A DNA stretch of 40,471 nucleotides, taken from IMG/VR virus record IMGVR_UViG_2565956717_000010, positions 1 through 40,471 of that record, one strand, 5' to 3'. The notes under the pieces were generated by a model that was not told the origin of the DNA, ran no database searches, and saw only the letters and a program-made list of their open reading frames with translations. This document shows positions 1,266 to 34,085 of the stretch, in pieces; position 1 is the stretch's first letter, and each line of letters starts with the position of its first letter. Position numbers and translations under genes: made by a program. The stretch is from a virus (lineage: Duplodnaviria; Heunggongvirae; Uroviricota; Caudoviricetes).

Positions 1266-1763
1266 TCAGTGCCACGATTTTTGCTTCTTCAGTGAATCGT
1301 ATTGCTGCTCGCAGAATTCCCCTGCGATACGATACTTTTCAGCCTCAGCTGCTGTTGCGTTGTAAACTCGGTTGCTTTCTTCAAGCATGTCGGCGAGCAC
1401 ACCGATGACCTTGCTGGCTGGCGTGCCAGGGGGGAAAGATCCGGTATAGTGTTCGGCGAGCCGCCTGGTTTTGTCAAGCTCGGCGCGCATGCTGTCAGCA
1501 GCGGAATTAGCATACTCAGCATCAGCACGCGCCGCATCGATACGGGATTGTGCTTCACGTTCAATTTGTGTTTTCTCCTGCTCACGCTGTGACCTTAACT
1601 TATCATCAGCCTGTTTCTGATCTTCCTTCGCCTGCGCATACCCGGCATCGTACTGACGGATGCCGTGCACATTCCAGGCAACAACTCCTGATATGACCAG
1701 AACAGCAAGCATCGCCACGATAAGTAACTGTTTACGGTATGCTTTTACAAATGCCCAGATCAT
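1266..1763 (-). CDS. Rz-like i-spanin (lysis)
   Basis: N-terminal TM helix followed by charged coiled-coil-like region; start overlaps endolysin stop (ATGA); last gene of lysis cassette. Confidence 0.65.
1289..1537 (-). CDS. Rz1-like o-spanin lipoprotein, embedded in Rz in another frame
   Basis: ORF wholly inside Rz; translation [17 protein letters not shown] has a lipobox (LTAC) followed by a Pro-rich segment. Start codon choice uncertain and RBS weak. Confidence 0.4.
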   Translation of the reverse strand: MRRVLMLSMLIPLLTACAPSLTKPGGSPNTIPDLSPLARQPARSSVCSPTCLKKATEFTTQQQLRLKSIVSQGNSASSNTIH

Positions 1764-2389
1764 ACCGCCAGTACCTTACTTGCTGTGATGTACCGCGCAC
1801 GCCGGTCGTCGATACCGTTTCTGCCACCATTGATAATCAGAGTTACACGTGCAATATCGCCGGTATACTTCATGCATCCTTTGCTGGCGAAGAACCACGC
1901 CGCGCTACGAGCCGCATATTCGTCCTGCGCCAGCAGTTCAGGGCTCTCCAGCAGGTCAACCTTCAGACCGTTTCCGCAATCACGATAGTTATTCAAACCG
2001 GTAATCTGGATAAGTCCGCGCCCTCGGTAATTCCAGCCATCACCAGGGGCATTGTTCCCCATGCGTTTGCTGTATACCAGATTTGCGATCGCGCGCTGGC
2101 GCTCAAGTGGCAATGGTGGTTCACCAGCACGGCGCCCCAGTGCATTAGCCTGCCCCTGAGTGAGACGCCCAGCCCGAACGAAGTTAGCCAGTCCGCTGAC
2201 ACTGTAGTTGAAATTCTCCTGCAACCTGGTGAAGCCCCCAGACTCATGCCCGACTTGAGCAATAAACATTGCCTGATCTTCTGCTTTGCTGATACCAAAC
2301 TCTTTCATCGCAGAAGTTATATGCGAGAACCAGCGTGCGGCCAGTGCCTCGCTGATACCAGCAGCTCGCTGGAATTGTTTAATCTCCAT
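1760..2389 (-). CDS. Endolysin, glycoside hydrolase family 19 (chitinase-like lysozyme)
   Basis: GH19 signatures visible in translation: [11 protein letters not shown] (catalytic Glu region) and [15 protein letters not shown]; start set at internal ATG 2387-2389 (MEIKQF) with GAGG RBS. Confidence 0.8.
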
Positions 2390-2687
2390 GTTTAGACCTC
2401 GATACTTTAAAAATTTGAACGACGTTACCGCGCGTTTTAATAACCGCAGCCAGCATGACAGCGTTGATAATGACCTCAGATAAATCCACAGCCATTGGCG
2501 TACGTAACCAGATTGCATAGGCGACTCGAACAGGAATACTGGCCGCAGCAACAATCAGGAAATAAGCAAGCCATCCTCCCCACCTTCGATGTTGAGAGCC
2601 GTTACGCCGGAATGTGACAACGCGAATTGCTATGCCAGTGCAAATAACTGCATTGGTGATAAGCAAAAAAAACTCATGCGTTACCAT
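2379..2687 (-). CDS. Holin/antiholin-like small membrane protein
   Basis: 102 aa with two hydrophobic helices; GGAG RBS; sits between a holin-like gene and the endolysin. Confidence 0.5.
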
Positions 2688-3078
2688 CGTCTTTTCTCCC
2701 CGGAATTAACTCGCGTGGATTATCGGAACGGTGATAGAGCCATATACCAATACGCACAGCGACAATTGCTGACACGAATGCGCCTGCAGAGAAAACAATC
2801 CCTTTTTCAAAAGAGTCCTGCGTGATGGTAGGGATCAGGCTGGCTATGCCGATAAGAATTGATGCTGCTGGTTTGTAAAAGAGAAGGCCACAAAGAAAGC
2901 TGAGCATCGAAAGGAGCACCCGGCGACGGATGGGGTACTCTACTGCAGAGGTAACAAAAATTACCGCCCCAGCCAAAGCCCCTAAAGCAACCTCCGGAGG
3001 GACACCTGCAATAACCGCAGCAAGAGAACCAAAACTAAGCAACTGATTTAATTGCTCACTTGTTACTTGAGCAGACAT
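2674..3078 (-). CDS. Holin-like membrane protein
   Basis: 134 aa, three to four hydrophobic helices; AGGAGA RBS 6 nt upstream of ATG; first gene of lysis cassette. Confidence 0.5.
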   Translation of the reverse strand: MSAQVTSEQLNQLLSFGSLAAVIAGVPPEVALGALAGAVIFVTSAVEYPIRRRVLLSMLSFLCGLLFYKPAASILIGIASLIPTITQDSFEKGIVFSAGAFVSAIVAVRIGIWLYHRSDNPRELIPGRKDDGNA

Positions 3079-3360
3079 ACTTTCTCCTGTTTACTATCTA
3101 TAAGCCAGTCAATTATTGATGACTAACCCCCGCATAGTAAACCATATATGAATCATTATTGTTCCATATCATATATCTCAATAAAAGTACTAATGATTTT
3201 ACAGAACGAGCCAGCAGAGTGAGGGCAGTTGTACAGGAACCATAGACTTAATTTTGTATTTAATAATGCTATGGTGTAATAAACCTGAACATGTATTTAA
3301 AATACGTACTGATTCATGATAGAATTCAAGGATAACTTTTCACAAACTCCGTTTTTGATA

Positions 3361-3387
3361 CCCGCAAAATATTGCGGGCTTTTTTTT
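3361..3387 (+). terminator. Strong intrinsic terminator (plus-strand polarity) between lysis cassette and tailspike
   Basis: Stem CCCGCAA/TTGCGGG with 4-nt loop followed by T8 on the plus strand. On the minus strand the hairpin is preceded by an A-tract, so it is not a classical minus-strand terminator. Confidence 0.5.
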
Positions 3388-6300
3388 AACGTTCTTCCAG
3401 AGACTGAATCCGCTCTTTTATCTTATCCATTTCTCTGCGCTGCCATGCTGCCTCGATATAGAATAAGAGATCAGGTCTGACCCCCCATCTAGATCCTGCT
3501 GGCGTTATTTCAACGCGCTCAATGATGTCTTCCATTACCATCACTGGATTATCATCCTCATCAACAATAATGCTCCCGTCATTATCAGTCAGCGGCATTT
3601 CCCTTTGGCCAGTAATGACGTCATCATATACTGCGGGATAATCGTCATAGCAAAGAAACGCATAGCGGCATGTTGTGCTTTCTTCTTCCATGAGTCCGTG
3701 AGAAATAAGAACATCACGAAGTTGCTGCGCGATTACACCATGATGTATCCTCGCCCCTTCTTCCCCCTTTATAGCGACAGCGTTCAGCCATTTATAAGCG
3801 ATATACCTGACGTCACCCCAGGCATCCAGCAATGCTTCGTCAGGAGAGACCGGCTCTGTCTTTAATGTTCCGTCACTGGTAACCACAGGATTGGAGCCAA
3901 GATAAACTGTCGAGAACCTGTTTCCCGGACCACCAAGAGCATTTACATTATCAAGATAAGGTTTAACATCTCCGTTCTCAAAAAGATGTTCGAGTGCGTT
4001 ATATACCGCGCGACGTGGAGTACTGCTTCCGGAACCATGCAACGTTATCATTGCACCATCTGCTGAAGACGTTGTTTCACCGCCGCTAACGATTAATCTC
4101 TGAGCGGTAACATCATCAGACGGTACTTTCTTCGCAATAATGGCGTAATTACCCTCAAGTTTGACTTCCGCGCGAACTTGTCCTGATGTACCTGCATGGA
4201 CAGTCAGTGACTGGACGGCAACATCATCTGTGAAATCAACGGGTACAGGAACCGTCCTCACGCCTGACGTCGACATAAAAGTAGGAAGCGTTCTGTTAGG
4301 AGTGGCTCCGTAGACAAAATCCCTTGAAACAAATTCTTCCTGTTTAATTTTCACCCTGAAACAATACAAATCAGCCGGGTGACCATCGTGAACATAAGGA
4401 TATTTTCTGTTGTTATCCCCTATGCTCCATGGGTTTAGAAAGTCTTCCCCACCGAAAATGTAGTACAGCCAGTTGTCTTTGATACAAACTGAACCAACAC
4501 CAACCGCAGAGTTAACTATTCCGCCCTGATAAATCTGATCAGTAACATTAACCCACTCTACATTATCCAGACTCCACTCATTGACGTTAACTCTGGTCAT
4601 AAATGTTCTTGGATAATTTCCTGCATAACGGTTATCAGGTTCTCCTCCTTCCCACTCACCAAATGCGCGCTCACTGCCAAAAATAATCAGCTCATCGCCA
4701 ACTTTGGCAAAAGGAAGGTTTGAGTGATGAACATTATTTGGGAAGCGAAGAGAATTCCATGATGTACCTAAATCAGAGCTTCTGTGCAATGAACTACCGG
4801 GTTGAGTACTTAATGTCCCCCTGGTCGTCAGATACAGAATGCCATCATAATATTTTACACATGGCTCAGATGCATTCGCCTCATATTCTGCAGGTATGCG
4901 TCTGCGAACAAAGCTACCAGGAGAACCGAAAGCATCAGAGAAATAGAGTATCCCAAGCTCGCGTGGACCAATATCACCATTATGGTAGCCAACAGCAAAA
5001 CTGTTATCGCTAATCGTCGCAAAACTGTGAATCTCAGTAACAGGAGTGCTTCCGTCAACAAAAGAAGGAATAGTTCCAAGACTGGTTTTTCTCCATGGTG
5101 ACGAGTGAAATGATGTACCAAAACTCCAGTATCTACCCTCGTTATTCTGATCCACATCCTGGGTATTTTGCGTCGTAACTGTAAAAGTATTTTTATCAAT
5201 AACAGTAGTCACCGTCATATTCCCGGTAACACCTGTAACACCAGAGTTTGAGAAGTTGACAAAATCACCAGCAAATAATCCGTGATCAGTAATGCGAATA
5301 TAAGCGACTTGCTGATTTGCTGCTTTCGTTATACCACCATAAACGCGAAGGCTGCGACTCATTGGGCGATCCCACAACTCTGCAACCTGCAGTTTATTTC
5401 CGCTCACGGTCCGCGTCTCAATTACAGCAAAAAGGCGATTTCTGACAACCCCCATACTCATGCAGTGATAGTTAACTGTGGGATAGTTTTCATGTAAATC
5501 TGTAAGCCATTCCGGCGTTGTCCAGGTCTTCCCGTCATCTCCTGAGCGAACCCATGCAACATGGAGGTTATTTACACCATGGCGGTCTCCAGCCATAAAA
5601 GGCGCATAGATGACATTGTCATATACAAACGTTTTATCCTGCGTCCAGGCGTTGTACCACGGTGTATCTGTAATTTTAAATAACTCTCCCTGGATAAAAT
5701 CTTCAGAAGCATAAAAAAGAGGCTGGCCCGGTATTCTCTCAAATAAAAAACGAGCATTTTTAAATCGACTGACATCCGGAAGAGTTGATACTTTAAAAGT
5801 AAGCCCTAATCCGTCAATTCTATAACCTGGAGATGAGGCTTCAAGGCACGCGCTTATTGCAGTGGAATCGTCATTTATACCATCACCAACAGCTCCAAAA
5901 TCTTTGGGGCTAATAGCATCACGCATTTTATCCTGGAACGTTCGGTACACAGCCCCAGAACCATACTGAATAAACCAACCAAAACCACCAACAACCCCGG
6001 CGATTGCAGCATCGACATAATTACGCATTGAGCGATTATTTACAGCGTCCTGCTCAAATGATGGATCTGCAAGGTTAGAAATTTTGTTTTGCTTTGCATC
6101 GTAATATTTTGCAAGCAAAGATGGTTTCATCAATGCACGTCTGAACCACCCAAAACATTGCTGGATCAGCATCGTCAGGTAGTCAAAGGCATCTTCATGC
6201 ACTTCGGGGAAAAATTTTCCCTGATTGCGAAGGTCTGTCTCCTGCACTACATCAAGCACACGATCTATCGTAATTCGCCATCCAGTAGCAAGCGGAGACG

Positions 6301-6505
6301 GAAGAACCACAGAACCGCCACTATAAGTGCCCGCCCCAGTTACCGTATAACCGGTATCCAGAACCAATTCTGTTACGTTTCCGTTCAGGTCAGACACCTG
6401 AACAACCAGGTCTGATTTTCTGAAAATTCGAAAAGTATACGGAAACGATGTCGTAACGCCGTTACCGGTGTATTCGTTGTGGTCAACTTCGGTTGAGACC
6501 GTCAT
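3386..6505 (-). CDS. Tailspike with T7 gp17-like N-terminal adaptor, sialidase-fold (endosialidase-like) domain and C-terminal intramolecular chaperone domain
   Basis: Two Asp-box motifs (SGDDGKTW, SSDLGTSW); strong resemblance, from memory, to the K1F endosialidase catalytic region (GELFKITDTP, NYHCMSMGV); C-terminal S74-like domain with SDGTLK cleavage-type motif; N-terminus EYTGNGVTTSFPYTF resembles T7-type fibre adaptors. Confidence 0.8.
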   Translation of the reverse strand: MTVSTEVDHNEYTGNGVTTSFPYTFRIFRKSDLVVQVSDLNGNVTELVLDTGYTVTGAGTYSGGSVVLPSPLATGWRITIDRVLDVVQETDLRNQGKFFPEVHEDAFDYLTMLIQQCFGWFRRALMKPSLLAKYYDAKQNKISNLADPSFEQDAVNNRSMRNYVDAAIAGVVGGFGWFIQYGSGAVYRTFQDKMRDAISPKDFGAVGDGINDDSTAISACLEASSPGYRIDGLGLTFKVSTLPDVSRFKNARFLFERIPGQPLFYASEDFIQGELFKITDTPWYNAWTQDKTFVYDNVIYAPFMAGDRHGVNNLHVAWVRSGDDGKTWTTPEWLTDLHENYPTVNYHCMSMGVVRNRLFAVIETRTVSGNKLQVAELWDRPMSRSLRVYGGITKAANQQVAYIRITDHGLFAGDFVNFSNSGVTGVTGNMTVTTVIDKNTFTVTTQNTQDVDQNNEGRYWSFGTSFHSSPWRKTSLGTIPSFVDGSTPVTEIHSFATISDNSFAVGYHNGDIGPRELGILYFSDAFGSPGSFVRRRIPAEYEANASEPCVKYYDGILYLTTRGTLSTQPGSSLHRSSDLGTSWNSLRFPNNVHHSNLPFAKVGDELIIFGSERAFGEWEGGEPDNRYAGNYPRTFMTRVNVNEWSLDNVEWVNVTDQIYQGGIVNSAVGVGSVCIKDNWLYYIFGGEDFLNPWSIGDNNRKYPYVHDGHPADLYCFRVKIKQEEFVSRDFVYGATPNRTLPTFMSTSGVRTVPVPVDFTDDVAVQSLTVHAGTSGQVRAEVKLEGNYAIIAKKVPSDDVTAQRLIVSGGETTSSADGAMITLHGSGSSTPRRAVYNALEHLFENGDVKPYLDNVNALGGPGNRFSTVYLGSNPVVTSDGTLKTEPVSPDEALLDAWGDVRYIAYKWLNAVAIKGEEGARIHHGVIAQQLRDVLISHGLMEEESTTCRYAFLCYDDYPAVYDDVITGQREMPLTDNDGSIIVDEDDNPVMVMEDIIERVEITPAGSRWGVRPDLLFYIEAAWQRREMDKIKERIQSLEER

Positions 6506-6609
6506 GTTAAATCTCCAGATAGTCGCAGCACCCGTTGCGCCGCATATCTGGTTATTCTATTACCTGGAAAACCACATATGGATAGAAAGGCTGTAAATAC
6601 GAATAGATA

Positions 6610-6624
6610 TTACCTTTCAGGTAA
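6610..6624. promoter_or_regulatory. Operator-like palindrome TTACC-N5-GGTAA (site 1)
   Basis: Perfect inverted repeat TTACCtttcaGGTAA flanked A..T; in divergent region between tailspike start and the LexA-box gene. Confidence 0.45.
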
Positions 6625-6663
6625 TTTGCAAAACGTGCTGGATAGCAAACAAATTATTTGCTA

Positions 6664-6679
6664 CTGTATAAATATACAG
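6664..6679. promoter_or_regulatory. LexA (SOS) box
   Basis: CTGTATAAATATACAG is a perfect CTGT-N8-ACAG palindrome with AT-rich centre, 22 bp upstream of ATG 6701; overlaps -10-like TATAAA. Only such box found in the window. Confidence 0.7.
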
Positions 6680-6700
6680 TTATTGCATGGAGAAGATAAG

Positions 6701-6958
6701 ATGCAGCAGTATCACTATCCACTGGAAGACGGATTTACCGAAAGGATTCACACGCCGGGAGGCGTCAGGTCACTGGTGGAGGGATCGCACTTGATGAAAT
6801 TACTCCGGGATCTCGATAAGGATGGATTTAATGTCGATGGCCCACTTGCCGAACTGACTGCACTGATTAACTACGTCACCAGCTCACAGATGTCTATGCA
6901 GGATCTGCAAACACATCTCGACTATTGTGCCGAACAATTACGAAAGCAAACCAGATAA
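6701..6958 (+). CDS. Small protein homologous to the C-terminal domain of the adjacent antirepressor (SOS-controlled antirepressor candidate)
   Basis: 85 aa from ATG 6701 with GGAG RBS; C-terminal ~60 aa align with the C-terminus of the 7276-7926 product (GVRSLVEGSHLMKLLRDL...DLQTHLDY vs GVLGLTENSLLMNLLNQL...DIQTHAEY). Confidence 0.6.
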   Translation: MQQYHYPLEDGFTERIHTPGGVRSLVEGSHLMKLLRDLDKDGFNVDGPLAELTALINYVTSSQMSMQDLQTHLDYCAEQLRKQTR

Positions 6959-7004: not shown

Positions 7005-7095
7005 ATTTACATCGCACTCCTCTTGTGCCATAGTAATCGGGCACTGGCAAAATCCAGTGCCGGGATTGGTCTCCCGGATTACTAAGTGGCGCATA

Positions 7096-7117
7096 CCACG
7101 CCAGACGTGGTTTTTTT
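7096..7117 (+). terminator. Intrinsic terminator after small antirepressor-like gene
   Basis: Stem CCACG/CGTGG with 5-nt loop followed by T7. Confidence 0.5.
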
Positions 7118-7275
7118 ATGCGTATAGCACAGTCATGCCAGAATTATGGTGGGCTGAATGGGGGTCCGAAAGGACGCCGGTACCACTTAGGCCGGTAAGA
7201 CCAACTCCGTTCAGTTCACCACCATCTGATTGGTCTCAGCGGTGGTGATGTAATTCGCTAAGTGGAGACGCCATA

Positions 7276-7926
7276 ATGAACGCTCAACTCATCCCCGTAT
7301 TCAACGGCACTATATCCAACGAAACCGCTCTTCTCGTTAATGCCCGTGATTTACACACTTTCCTCGATGTGGGTAAGCGATTTGCTTCGTGGATTGTCGA
7401 ACGAATTTCTGAATATGGTTTCGTTGAAAATCAAGACTTTATGATTATTTCCCAAGTTCGGGAAAAAATAGGCAGAGGCCGTCCTGCAAAAGACTACCAC
7501 CTCACCCTCGATACAGCCAAAGAGCTGGCGATGGTCGAGCGTAACGAAAAAGGTCGTCAGGTACGACGCTACTTCATTGAATGCGAGAAACGTTTAAGAC
7601 AACAAGAAACAAAAGTGGAGAAGGTCTTGTCAGGCTTCATGCCCGCCATTATGGAGGCGATCAAGCTGGAAGACAAAAAAGAATACAGTGCCCCACTGAA
7701 GCCCGGCTACCGTAGCCTGATTCATTCGCCGTCTGGTGTTCTCGGCCTGACGGAGAACTCACTGCTGATGAATCTGCTGAACCAGTTACAGGACGACGGG
7801 CACGACGTATCGGGCGCGGCGGCGGAGCTGACCACCATGTTCTGCTACATCGTCGGTGTGAGCAAATGCCTGCGTGATATCCAGACCCACGCGGAGTACA
7901 TCAACGACAAGGCAGGGTTCTTCTGA
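7276..7926 (+). CDS. Antirepressor, AntA-type N-terminal domain
   Basis: N-terminal LIPVFNGT...LVNARDLHTFLDVGKRFASWIVERISEYGFVENQDF matches the AntA/AntB antirepressor pattern as I remember it; GGAG RBS; C-terminal domain shared with 6701-6958. Confidence 0.7.
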   Translation: MNAQLIPVFNGTISNETALLVNARDLHTFLDVGKRFASWIVERISEYGFVENQDFMIISQVREKIGRGRPAKDYHLTLDTAKELAMVERNEKGRQVRRYFIECEKRLRQQETKVEKVLSGFMPAIMEAIKLEDKKEYSAPLKPGYRSLIHSPSGVLGLTENSLLMNLLNQLQDDGHDVSGAAAELTTMFCYIVGVSKCLRDIQTHAEYINDKAGFF

Positions 7927-7992
7927 CGGGCGGCGGCACAGGGATGTGCTTCTGACATAATCATTTGCGGTGTGATGTAGATTCACGTAAGA

Positions 7993-8007
7993 TTACCTTA
8001 AAGGTAA
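7993..8007. promoter_or_regulatory. Operator-like palindrome TTACC-N5-GGTAA (site 3)
   Basis: TTACCttaaaGGTAA, 26 bp upstream of ATG 8034; overlaps a second palindrome GTAAACC-atg-GGTTTAC (8004-8020). Confidence 0.45.
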
Positions 8008-8033
8008 ACCATGGGTTTACATGAGGAGGAGAT

Positions 8034-8243: not shown

Positions 8244-9109
8244 TGTTGTTAGCTCTTCTAATTATCCCCATTCTGGTTAGTGGTTATATTATGATAACCG
8301 CTAACCAGTATCATTATTTCCGTTTATACCGACATGAAGGCCAGCTTCTTTATATGAAAGTAGCTGCATTAGGTACATATTGCCTTGTTGCATCAGTAAT
8401 AATTGCAGCCGCTATAAAATATAAATGGCCTGATTTTCACCTAGTTCACGATATGGTGGAAACTTTTAATGTAACATCAAAACCAGAAACAGATAGAATT
8501 TACATGTGGCTGCTTCTTCTCTCAGCCACATCCATTTGCTTCTCTTTGTGTTATGTGTCTGTTGTGTGGGTGAAAGATTTTCTTCTTGGTTGTTTTTATA
8601 AACGTGATATTTACGAGCAAAAAACAGAGGCAATGAAGGCCAGAGTACTGCGAAAAACTTACTCGCAAGGTTCTTTAGACTTACTATTGCTTGATGCTAT
8701 TGAATCGGATCCTAAACGACCAATGTTGATTACTTTATCATCAAACAAAGTGTATGTTGGAATAATAAATGGTTCTGGTGAACCAACGGAAAATCAGGGT
8801 CCGCATCAGCACATATCTTTTGTTCCTTTAATGTCAGGATACAGGAACAAAGAAAACTTATCTGTCACATTCACTAATGCTTATCCAGGAGAAATACAGG
8901 TCAAGCGGACTGCAGCAATAAGAGGAATTAGCAGAAAGAAAGTGCTAGGACTTGAGATCATGGTGTCTATTGACGAAATAAGTTATATATCATGGTTTGA
9001 TTTTGAAGTATATAAAGCAACAAATAACAAAGTAGAATCCAGGGGGCACGTTATTCGTGTTACCAAAAATGGAAGAAATATATATCAAAGAAATAGCAAA
9101 AAAGAATAG
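8243..9109 (+). CDS. Hypothetical membrane protein (three N-terminal TM helices plus ~170-aa soluble domain), AT-rich cargo
   Basis: 288 aa; AAGGA RBS; three hydrophobic segments in first ~110 aa; markedly AT-rich codon usage compared with flanking structural genes; terminator directly after stop. Confidence 0.6.
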   Translation: MLLALLIIPILVSGYIMITANQYHYFRLYRHEGQLLYMKVAALGTYCLVASVIIAAAIKYKWPDFHLVHDMVETFNVTSKPETDRIYMWLLLLSATSICFSLCYVSVVWVKDFLLGCFYKRDIYEQKTEAMKARVLRKTYSQGSLDLLLLDAIESDPKRPMLITLSSNKVYVGIINGSGEPTENQGPHQHISFVPLMSGYRNKENLSVTFTNAYPGEIQVKRTAAIRGISRKKVLGLEIMVSIDEISYISWFDFEVYKATNNKVESRGHVIRVTKNGRNIYQRNSKKE

Positions 9110-9129
9110 CCCGCGCTGCGGGCTTTTTT
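9108..9129 (+). terminator. Intrinsic terminator after cargo membrane-protein gene
   Basis: Stem GCCCG/CGGGC with 5-nt loop followed by T6, starting at the stop codon. Confidence 0.55.
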
Positions 9130-25655: not shown

Positions 25656-25745
25656 ATCAATGACTCCGTACGCAATTAAATTATTACCAATTTAACCATA
25701 TATGATTTATTTATCGTAGATAGTTGACATTTAACGCACGAATTA

Positions 25746-25760
25746 TTACCTTTCAGGTAA
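25746..25760. promoter_or_regulatory. Operator-like palindrome TTACC-N5-GGTAA (site 4)
   Basis: TTACCtttcaGGTAA, identical core to site 1; TTGACA hexamer 16 bp upstream on the plus strand (25724-25729); between portal operon and tRNA. Confidence 0.45.
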
Positions 25761-26082
25761 GCAAATAGTTCATTCAGGTTATTAACCTGACTGGCTTGTC
25801 GTTAAATTGAACAGGTGGAGTGAGCTTTTATTTTGAGCAGTACGGCGTATGGCACATGCGCCGATAGCGGTCTGGATACGCTTAAGGGGCACCCTCCCTT
25901 GCTCGGGCAAACGAACCAGGTAGCCGGAATGTGCAAGTCGAGCGGTTTTATTCCGCGCACGGGGATTCACCATCCCGGCGATTCGGTGTGACGCCTCGGA
26001 AGAGACGAGGGTACAACGATGAGAGCATTTATGGAGCCGCGACAAAGTGTGGCGCCTTAACAGGCTAAGTGCTCTCAGCGTT

Positions 26083-26159
26083 GTGGCATTAGCTCAGTTG
26101 GACAGAGCAACCGCCTTCTAAGCGGTTGGTCGCAGGTTCGAATCCTGCATGCCACGCCA
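26083..26159 (+). tRNA. tRNA-Arg (anticodon UCU)
   Basis: 77 nt, hand-folded cloverleaf: acceptor GTGGCAT/ATGCCAC, D-stem GCTC/GAGC, anticodon stem ACCGC/GCGGT with loop CTTCTAA, T-arm GCAGG-TTCGAAT-CCTGC, discriminator G, encoded CCA. Acceptor stem differs from the host argU I remember. Confidence 0.85.
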
Positions 26160-27951: not shown

Positions 27952-28544
27952 TGATTACCATCCTGACGTTCTTTGAGTCGCTTCCTGGCTGCTGCTATGC
28001 GATCAGCAATTGTCACATTCACATTAACATCCAGACGTTCTTTGAACGCGTTGACATCAACATGCTTACCAATCAGCTCAAGGTTCTTCACCTTGTCAGG
28101 CCATTTAATTTTTTTGAGGATTGTCTCTATCGAATCCTCGTTCATGTTCATGATGGTCGATGACAGATCAAAGCCACTAAGCGTAGTGCGCCAGATTTTC
28201 GGCCACTCGCGGATTGGCTTAAGGCTCCCATCGTCGTTGAGGATGTCGATCACGTCCATCTGGTCGATCTCCACCAGGCGCATGAGAACGTAATCAGCAC
28301 TGACGCGCATTCGTTTGTTGCGCTCCTCCATCAACTCGGCAATCCGTTTCTGAATGCGTTCATCGCGCATCATGACACTGGCTTTAACTGCCGCTGTATT
28401 TGGGGAGAATCCTGCATTAATCGCTGCCTGAGTCTGGTTTTCAGGCGTTTTGATGTATGACTGGCAATAAGCCTCCTGCATTGCTGTTAGTGGCTTAAAT
28501 TGCGTTGATTTGCGTTTATAGGTTTTAGGTTCAGCAGGCATCAT
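27948..28544 (-). CDS. Terminase small subunit
   Basis: Conserved-looking KPLTAMQEAYCQSYIKTPENQTQAAINAGFS segment; start placed at Met-27 of the ORF because the upstream 26 codons are translated from the tandem palindrome repeats. Confidence 0.6.
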   Translation of the reverse strand: MMPAEPKTYKRKSTQFKPLTAMQEAYCQSYIKTPENQTQAAINAGFSPNTAAVKASVMMRDERIQKRIAELMEERNKRMRVSADYVLMRLVEIDQMDVIDILNDDGSLKPIREWPKIWRTTLSGFDLSSTIMNMNEDSIETILKKIKWPDKVKNLELIGKHVDVNAFKERLDVNVNVTIADRIAAARKRLKERQDGNQ

Positions 28545-28558
28545 AACCACCGTGGTAA
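28544..28558. promoter_or_regulatory. Operator-like palindrome, one mismatch (TAACC-N5-GGTAA; site 9a)
   Basis: Directly abuts the terminase small-subunit start; part of a tandem pair inside direct repeats GTGGTAATAGT. Confidence 0.35.
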
Positions 28559-28561
28559 TAG

Positions 28562-28576
28562 TTACCGTTGTGGTAA
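28562..28576. promoter_or_regulatory. Operator-like palindrome TTACC-N5-GGTAA (site 9b)
   Basis: TTACCgttgtGGTAA, 18 bp upstream of the terminase small-subunit start. Confidence 0.45.
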
Positions 28577-28618
28577 TAGTACCATGCAAAATAAAGCCGC
28601 CATAGTTGGCGGCAGTAT

Positions 28619-31619: not shown

Positions 31620-31622
31620 GAT

Positions 31623-31637
31623 TTACCCCTGAGGTAA
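31623..31637. promoter_or_regulatory. Operator-like palindrome TTACC-N5-GGTAA (site 5)
   Basis: TTACCcctgaGGTAA, 4 bp upstream of ATG 31619 (minus strand). Confidence 0.45.
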
Positions 31638-31684
31638 TTAAAAACCACATAAGACAAGAAATCAATAGATTTTAGAATATTTTA

Positions 31685-31699
31685 TTACCTCATAGGTAA
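31685..31699. promoter_or_regulatory. Operator-like palindrome TTACC-N5-GGTAA (site 6)
   Basis: TTACCtcataGGTAA flanked A..T; between the P-like gene stop and the next gene. Confidence 0.45.
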
Positions 31700-31736
31700 T
31701 TATTGAGACATAAAAAAATGCGCTATCGCGCTGGTA

Positions 31737-34013: not shown

Positions 34014-34015
34014 AT

Positions 34016-34030
34016 TTACCTGTTGGGTAA
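34016..34030. promoter_or_regulatory. Operator-like palindrome TTACC-N5-GGTAA (site 8c)
   Basis: TTACCtgttgGGTAA, 56 bp upstream of repressor-candidate ATG. Confidence 0.45.
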
Positions 34031-34085
34031 TATTGCTTTAAATTGAATCATCTACTGATTCATATACGAGGCGATTTTCCAGAAA

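Follow-up and report, generated by a model that had tools for sequence, protein, structure and literature searches.

A terminator signature facing against the late genes in the tailspike-lysis gap of a Uetakevirus prophage with a K1-capsule tailspike

In the prophage of IMG/VR virus record IMGVR_UViG_2565956717_000010, the tailspike gene is separated from the lysis cassette by a gap of 307 base pairs (bp) that carries no recognizable gene and that, at its tailspike end, holds an intrinsic-terminator signature facing against the late genes. The window analysed here is the whole stretch of 40,471 nucleotides (nt) of that record, in which the gap occupies positions 3079-3385, between the start codon of a holin-family gene and the stop codon of the tailspike gene. 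Sequence comparison indicates that the window is an epsilon15/phiV10-like (genus Uetakevirus) prophage with a K1-capsule tailspike, and that the gap is the variable conversion-gene slot between tailspike and lysis cassette. The explanation that we favour, and that we consider probable while holding it with some reserve, is that this slot is a composite of a lysis leader, a filler and an orphan or vestigial cassette terminator, in which the terminator would block counter-transcription and late transcription would read through to the lysis genes.

Results

The tailspike-lysis interval in related phages

By means of the 134-amino-acid (aa) protein that the first lysis gene encodes, relatives were gathered from 36 phage records, 6 genome loci and 80 IMG/VR loci, and the slot was measured in them as the interval from the tailspike stop to the start of the lysis cassette. 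Across 94 related loci there were 70 distinct versions, with lengths from 99 to 3126 bp, lying between a conserved tailspike N-terminus and the lysis leader. The slot of epsilon15 holds an O-antigen ligase-family gene together with an alpha-polymerase inhibitor, that of phiV10 the O-acetyltransferase gene oac, that of Tyrion a gene for a large O-antigen acetylase and that of PAT1 a gene for a large lipopolysaccharide acyltransferase; in these four phages the slot genes stand on the opposite strand, oppose the late genes and converge on the tailspike gene, and in TL-2011b, phiv142-3 and EC.W1-9 the slot genes lie on the same strand as the late genes. The gap of the window has the same position and the same low GC content as the slots with epsilon15 genes 21 and 22, phiV10 oac and the Tyrion and PAT1 acyltransferases, its GC fraction being 0.325-0.355 and that of the flanks 0.45-0.52.

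Of the 17 distinct slots that carry an opposite-strand gene, 16 have a GC-rich hairpin no more than about 15 nt from the tailspike stop, and such hairpins are rare where no opposite-strand gene is present. Those of loci L033, L080, L008 and L010 have both A-rich and T-rich flanks and are two-way; at L084 an A-run and the hairpin occur with no T-run, which is the geometry of the window, and this hairpin stands downstream of a 321-aa open reading frame (ORF) on the opposite strand. In both its orientation and its placement hard against the tailspike stop, the terminator of the window is the same as in the epsilon15-like conversion slots. Unlike those slots, however, the gap has no ORF, its spacer shows no homology to their cassettes, and it is without two elements found ahead of the conversion genes in relatives, an operator-like palindrome and a promoter-like site on the opposite strand. 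The K1 type, to which the window belongs, is the only ORF-less slot with an opposite-strand-only terminator.

What morons are has been described, and each phage-associated neaT homologue, that of phiV10 included, occupies a known moron position (PMC3573123). Two moron features are present in the gap, namely a position that varies among syntenic phages and a base composition unlike that of the surrounding genes. A third feature, the gene itself, was absent, as we found no ORF, no Rfam match and no homology to the slot proteins of relatives. As for an own promoter and terminator, the terminator is clear, and the candidate promoter is a 9/12 match in AT-rich DNA.

The terminator

The intrinsic-terminator signature lies at 3361-3387 on the plus strand, with its stem at 3361-3367 and 3372-3378, its loop at 3368-3371, a C at 3379 and T8 at 3380-3387. 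Five of the 7 bp of the stem are G-C, the loop has 4 nt, the U-tract begins one base past the stem, and the plus-strand hairpin folds at -11.2 kcal/mol (z -3.1). A terminator scan found the site on the plus strand only; viewed from the minus strand the hairpin has A8 before it and UAUCAAAAACG after it, and therefore no U-tract. The GC-rich 7-bp stem, the 4-nt loop and the 8-T tract, at a junction facing a convergent gene, are as in intrinsic terminators generally. From this class, which includes bidirectional terminators between convergent genes, the terminator of the gap differs in that it is unidirectional and that no annotated or detectable transcription unit ends there.

Under a strict definition (seven perfect pairs, at least five of them G-C, and at least seven T in eight), five terminators were observed in the 40-kb window against 0.005 per dinucleotide shuffle, and the feature is confirmed as real and not due to chance. 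On our reading of the ORF map, the other four, at 1116-1135, 9108-9124 and 28596-28613 on the minus strand and at 34692-34709 on the plus strand, each close a same-strand gene block, and 3361-3387 alone does not. On the plus strand upstream of it, back to the host genes, there is no ORF of at least 30 aa and no Rfam RNA. The hairpin carries the canonical terminator signature for the plus strand only, and it would be expected to stop transcripts arriving on that strand.

The preliminary description of this locus, made from the sequence alone, had reported an AT-rich gap free of ORFs, amid neighbouring genes that all lie on the minus strand, with a hairpin and T8 that face the plus strand only and have no plus-strand gene to serve. 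Each of these observations holds. The gap contains no ORF of at least 30 aa on either strand and its GC content is low, at about 33%, the genes across 1266-6505 are all on the minus strand, and the scan and the fold bear out the orientation of the hairpin. One point in its wording calls for correction: the final two T of T8 lie in the tailspike stop codon, where they overlap the complement of its TAA (3386-3388). Smaller frames of 21-28 aa appear in the gap only at a cut-off of at least 20 aa, all without a Shine-Dalgarno sequence, and one further frame of 54 aa crosses the terminator into the antisense of the tailspike gene; none of these is a credible gene.

The terminator stem is intact in all 15 distinct K1-type variants, and an exact-pattern scan of IMG/VR for the terminator returned 19 contigs, all in K1-type context. 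Its loop and closing A-T pairs (3368 and 3371) occur in two mutually reverse-complementary forms, CAAAATATTG and CAATATTTTG, and copies from several E. coli genomes and IMG/VR contigs that are near-identical in other respects carry one form or the other, which amounts to an inversion of the hairpin loop with the stem kept. The bare terminator is also identical over 29 nt to part of a Pseudomonas mandelii plasmid, and this match was taken as coincidence. We also set aside host read-in as the reason for the terminator, because visual inspection showed that the host genes are already followed by a hairpin with flanking A and T runs, at 1111-1140.

The lysis leader

The stretch 3079-3152, about 75 nt next to the lysis gene, is the sole portion of the slot that is common to other Uetakevirus members. 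On the minus strand this conserved leader starts with a palindrome, CATATATGG, at 3142-3150, which takes the form TCATATATGG in the window and CCATATATGG in most relatives; the palindrome stretch is the only slot sequence that blastn shares with other Uetakevirus slots. A long hairpin follows on the same strand at 3089-3142, consisting of 9 bp, a 4x4 internal loop, 10 bp and an 8-nt loop. It folds at -22.6 kcal/mol (z -5.3), its 3' end stops one base short of the Shine-Dalgarno sequence, and its base, GGUUUA...UAAAC, is nearly invariant across relatives.

When 47 distinct leaders were folded as single sequences, the minimum-free-energy fold of 44 was the equivalent hairpin, typically with 20-24 bp and z values of -3 to -7. 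RNAalifold on a plain MAFFT alignment of the leaders missed the long hairpin owing to misplaced gaps, and we relied instead on the single-sequence folds and on a covariance model, which was built from 13 main-group leaders and used to align 39 leaders (alignment A4). In A4, 91.9% of cells pair as against 38-56% with slid partners, 8 of the 24 pairs change on both sides, and the covariation score was reached by 0 of 500 shuffles. Because A4 is fitted to the model, its counts lean towards structure; the slid controls and the independent single-sequence folds agree with them. In the K1 lineage the entire upper stem has been replaced by a different sequence with pairing kept, and the main-group covariance model (R1) did not recover the K1-type leader at an E value of 0.01.

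GenBank labels the epsilon15 equivalent, upstream of gp23, as a predicted RNase III site (NC_004775 24755..24817), an in-silico annotation; it has the same position, the same basal stem and the same contact with the ribosome-binding site as the hairpin at 3089-3142. The K1-type hairpin differs from it in that the upper stem is wholly replaced. With its two stems separated by an internal loop, the K1-type version can be likened to the RNase III sites between T7 early mRNAs. We consider the late-strand mRNA the probable place of action of the leader hairpin, which could, for instance, be a processing site that RNase III would cleave. Among K1-type copies, the 5' side of the upper stem is polymorphic at 3127-3128 in the length and bases of a G/T-run (GCGGGGGUUAG, GCGGGGUUAG and GCGGGUUUAG), and this polymorphism shifts the predicted stability of the hairpin from -22.6 to -17.1 kcal/mol.

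The spacer and the 3' end of the tailspike gene

Between leader and terminator lies an AT-rich, ORF-free spacer of 208 nt (3153-3360) that is specific to the K1-endosialidase Uetakevirus lineage. It occurs in 72 of 5426 complete E. coli genomes, in 3 phage records and in 19 IMG/VR contigs, always in the same context and at 97-99.7% identity; the E. coli genomes carry the gap together with its flanks, always between an endosialidase or tail fiber gene and a putative holin gene. Comparison with the 70 other slots by blastn-short gave no similarity beyond the leader motif CATATATGGTTTA, and a tblastn search of the spacer with the slot-encoded peptides of relatives gave nothing meaningful. When spacer and terminator were compared by blastn with phages, complete E. 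coli genomes and plasmids, only their own lineage was found, apart from the 29-nt terminator identity described above. Rfam 15, applied to the whole window at gathering thresholds and to 2900-3600 at E values up to 10, gave only weak, terminator-driven matches in the gap.

The tailspike gene offers a view of how this arrangement may have been assembled. CUS-3, a P22-like K1 prophage, carries the same endosialidase gene with a moron position after it, as in the window, and over the stretch that reaches down to about 3415 the tailspike gene of the window shares 99% identity with CUS-3 siaK1; its final 13 codons (MDKIKERIQSLEER against IERIKARLDLIEGKH in the comparison of the window tailspike with CUS-3 siaK1) and everything downstream differ. 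The moron of CUS-3 is neuO, a gene with heptanucleotide repeats on the same strand, and its junction is unlike the spacer or the terminator of the window. Since divergence begins 13 codons before the stop and the downstream sequence is different, the spacer and the terminator did not arrive with the CUS-3-type gene. On this comparison the recombination junction is at about 3415, which would place the exchange point inside the C-terminal chaperone domain. A tblastn search with the last 47 aa of the tailspike found no phage with the distinctive final 13 residues.

Two damaged K1-type prophages were also found. In L026 (IMGVR_UViG_2740892258_000015) the early region is fused to what is left of the tailspike gene, roughly its last 100 nt, and in L116 (E. 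coli 23CRST038) an IS3 element truncates the tailspike; both retain the gap and the terminator.

Promoter-like sites and late transcription

Across a scanned region of 1.6 kb we found 10 promoter-like sites, compared with 3.5 in shuffles. The only plus-strand site within 2400-3400 is at 3296-3325, TTTAAA-N18-TAGAAT with a TG before the -10 hexamer, a 9/12 match. Two weak promoter-like sites lie on the late strand, TTGAGA-N18-AATGAT at 3181-3152 and TTTACT-N18-AATAAT at 3141-3112, each again a 9/12 match in AT-rich DNA. The phiV10 leader has a late-strand sigma-70-like site across the palindrome, TTAACC-N17-TATAAT (10/12), and the positions aligned to its two hexamers read TGATTC and CGGGGG in the window, where the site is degenerate. 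We found no late-strand terminator in the slot. Because such a terminator is lacking and the phiV10-type promoter is degenerate, the lysis genes of the K1 lineage are likely to be transcribed by read-through from the tailspike gene. The proposal that the gap might hold a regulatory or late-promoter region for the lysis genes is therefore upheld in part: the leader at 3079-3152 is conserved, but the phiV10-type promoter is degenerate and only 9/12 sites are left.

In phiV10 (L003 4920-4951) and Tyrion (L007 4920-4947) we observed overlapping promoter-like sites that stand face to face with the palindrome CCATATATGG as their spacer, reading TTAACC-N17-TATAAT on the late strand and TACACA-N16-TATAAT/TAAAAT on the opposite strand. 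This suggests a compact two-way promoter between conversion gene and lysis cassette in these two phages. An operator-like sequence, ATCACC-N5-GGTAAT, accompanies CCATATATGG before the lysis leader in phiV10 (L003 ~4884-4945), epsilon15, Tyrion and PAT1, and this arrangement is not present in the K1 lineage.

Neighbouring genes and other features of the prophage

The tailspike gene (3386-6505, minus strand) encodes an endosialidase of 1039 aa, its stop TAA being the reverse complement of 3386-3388, with Pfam domains for the endosialidase beta-propeller, beta-barrel and tail-spike and a Peptidase_S74 chaperone. On the other side of the gap, and likewise on the minus strand, the lysis cassette begins with the gene for a 134-aa membrane protein of Pfam family Phage_holin_8 (2674-3078, start at 3078), which is preceded by a Shine-Dalgarno sequence, AGGAG, at 3084-3088 and opens with ATG at 3076-3078. 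Downstream of it follow a 102-aa holin gene (2379-2687, Phage_holin_3_7), an endolysin gene (Glyco_hydro_19) and a spanin-type gene (DUF2514).

By blastn, the phage closest to the gap and its flanks is Escherichia phage vB_EcoP_ZX5, of the genus Uetakevirus (98.7-99% identity), and two unannotated phage fragments match them likewise; the paper on vB_EcoP_ZX5 contains nothing on this gap. The prophage is inserted beside host genes at 1-1071. The genomes listed as carriers include O1:K1 and O7:K1 strains as well as isolates from human, poultry, swine, cattle, dog and seawater sources. At the host-prophage junction (1111-1140), the hairpin CCCTCTGT...ACAGAGGG has flanking A and T runs, and a near-identical hairpin is found in the attP region of ZX5 (L001 4047-4070); the phage seems, from this likeness, to integrate at and to rebuild a host terminator.

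Two Rfam families matched above their gathering thresholds, isrK at 7041-7117 (67.7 bits) and C4 antisense RNA at 7142-7226 (61.2 bits), both on the plus strand and upstream of the 216-aa ORF at 7276-7926; in the same region ZX5 has an annotated anti-repressor gene. The prophage thus appears to carry a P1/P7-type C4-RNA control module for an anti-repressor. The palindrome ATTACC-N5-GGTAAT, annotated in epsilon15 as the repressor operator, has 13 sites in the window at up to two mismatches, compared with 1.3 expected; these lie at 6609-6625, 7992-8008, 25745-25761, 28543-28577, 31622-31700, 34015-34031 and 34727-34805, and none is in the gap. A CCATAT(A/G)TGG motif stands 30-40 nt after the operator upstream of the tailspike gene (6568-6625) and again near 25.7 kb (25692-25761), and this pairing, which is the same as that described above before the lysis leader of relatives, may be a repeated regulatory module. 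A gene for tRNA-Arg (anticodon TCT) lies inside the prophage at 26083-26159 on the plus strand, opposite to the neighbouring late genes. Finally, the listed 126-aa ORF at 6578-6958 on the plus strand, which has no Pfam family, is probably over-extended, as the ZX5 annotation and the epsilon15 gp19 homologue have 85 aa from 6701.

Discussion

The elements of the gap belong to known kinds, and the modular design of epsilon15-like phages explains them in outline. We propose that 3079-3152 is the genus-wide lysis leader, with its palindrome and an evolutionarily maintained RNA hairpin abutting the ribosome-binding site, that 3153-3360 is lineage-specific AT-rich filler without a gene, and that the terminator at 3361-3387 faces against late transcription at the place where, in relatives, the hairpin ends opposite-strand O-antigen-modifying genes. 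Because no such conversion gene is present here, the terminator is an orphan, which may be left over from a cassette since lost or may have been kept as an insulator in its own right. In either case it would halt counter-strand transcription before this enters the tailspike and structural genes as antisense. Such transcription could arise within the AT-rich slot itself, or it could come from the early-left operon of the circular genome, through the antisense of the lysis genes, attP and int. In circular ZX5, 3 nt separate the end of the early-left operon from the stop codon of the integrase gene that converges on it, and no other strong terminator lies on the same strand between that end and the equivalent of 3361-3387; the terminator may therefore be the last barrier before antisense reaches the structural genes, a point that we hold loosely. 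On the late strand no U-tract follows the hairpin, and transcription of the late genes should therefore run on from the tailspike gene into the lysis genes. The sequence features and their departure from chance, the layout of the slot in relatives and the conservation of the leader hairpin are observed here; termination, read-through, cleavage by RNase III and the loss of a gene are inferred.

Several observations weigh against this proposal. The spacer holds no remnant of a lost gene at the DNA or protein level, and for this reason it is the position of the terminator that speaks for a vestigial history. Relatives with empty slots of 99-134 bp have no terminator at all, so that an insulator is not obligatory in the genus. 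The element is intact in every one of about 90 copies, stem included across the loop inversion, and such retention could reflect selection for a product rather than a relic; it is also what would be expected by default in a young lineage with 97-99.7% identity. In addition, Rho probably stops untranslated antisense transcripts earlier, which weakens the variant in which the terminator backs up the early-left operon.

A product is the essence of the first alternative, in which the slot would hold a protein-free moron, a plus-strand small RNA (sRNA) of about 55-60 nt that starts near 3332, ends at 3387 and acts in trans on host or phage mRNAs. We regard this as unlikely. The promoter-like site, with its TG before the -10 hexamer, stands at the right distance upstream of a strong terminator, but it is only a 9/12 match in AT-rich DNA that is enriched for such matches. 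Neither its -35 nor its -10 hexamer varies among the 15 distinct variants, and the terminator stem does not vary either, yet single-nucleotide polymorphisms are denser in 3326-3388 than in 3153-3325, and no homologue exists beyond one lineage of 97-99.7% identity, so that conservation and covariation lend no support. A U-rich stretch followed by a hairpin and a poly-U tail is the typical 3' module of Hfq-dependent enterobacterial sRNAs, and here the U-rich UUUUUGAUA, with a U5 run just 5' of the hairpin, is followed by the hairpin and by U8; the 5' part of the putative RNA, however, has little structure. The U-rich stretch, the hairpin and a run of at least seven U are thus all found, but family membership and extra conservation are not, as no Rfam family was matched even at E values up to 10, where only terminator-driven noise appeared. 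Prophage-encoded Hfq-binding sRNAs such as isrK share with the gap their prophage location, a short unit of promoter-like site and terminator, and a 3' end made of U-rich stretch, hairpin and poly-U; they differ from it in that the gap has no family match and a conservation confined to one young lineage, and the sRNA here is putative. Relatives carry self-contained expression cassettes at the same position, which would suit such a moron, but predicted duplexes with the 168 translation-initiation regions of the window were no better than shuffled controls. In its more specific form, in which the K1 Uetakevirus lineage would have swapped a protein cassette for an Hfq-type sRNA moron (about 3332-3387, plus strand) that is expressed in lysogens and tunes host genes in K1 extraintestinal pathogenic E. 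coli, we find the idea distinctly unlikely.

The hairpin might instead act on the late strand, where it would keep 3' exonucleases off the end of the tailspike mRNA once the polycistronic late transcript had been cut at the leader hairpin, the T8 being incidental. On the minus strand the hairpin is indeed more stable (8 bp, -14.0 kcal/mol, z -4.2), it lies 6 nt after the tailspike stop, between the stop codon and the probable processing hairpin, and read-through without a U-tract is what is expected on that strand. However, the A8/T8 run is long and perfectly placed for plus-strand termination, a combination that is very rare by chance, L084 has the same hairpin geometry with a real opposite-strand gene to terminate, and empty-slot relatives have no such hairpin; these points make a purely late-strand role improbable in our judgement.

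The last alternative takes up the preliminary description: a plus-strand RNA with its 3' end at the terminator would lie antisense to the 5' region of the holin gene and would set the timing of lysis. Within the window it draws support from the orientation of the terminator alone; among relatives, the opposite-strand promoter-like TACACA-N16-TATAAT (10/12) in the Tyrion leader points to transcripts diverging from the holin region in the genus. We find this version very hard to credit, because the RNA would have to start at or below 3078, where no plus-strand promoter-like site exists (nor does one anywhere in 2400-3295), and the sole site at 3296-3325 would give about 55-60 nt with no overlap of the holin gene. 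The opposite-strand promoter that relatives carry inside the leader has degenerated in the K1 lineage, and in relatives, too, its start lies upstream of the start codon of the holin gene and its direction is away from that gene.

Were the sRNA reading nonetheless true, the conversion slot would also carry regulatory RNAs, and a prophage RNA present in 72 of 5426 complete E. coli genomes, O1:K1 and O7:K1 strains included, could bear on virulence regulation. Under the composite reading that we favour, the odd strand of the terminator would find its explanation in the modular design of epsilon15-like phages, whose tailspike-lysis junction takes up cassettes that usually run against late transcription, and annotators of epsilon15-like prophages should expect counter-oriented signals in this slot. 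Our comparison also suggests a rule, by which a two-way or late-strand terminator in the slot goes together with a promoter-like site in the lysis leader; since the K1 lineage has neither a late-strand or two-way terminator nor a leader promoter, expression of its lysis genes should depend on read-through from the tailspike gene. Throughout the genus, the first lysis gene has a covarying hairpin beside its ribosome-binding site, and this hairpin is a promising candidate for work on lysis-gene control.

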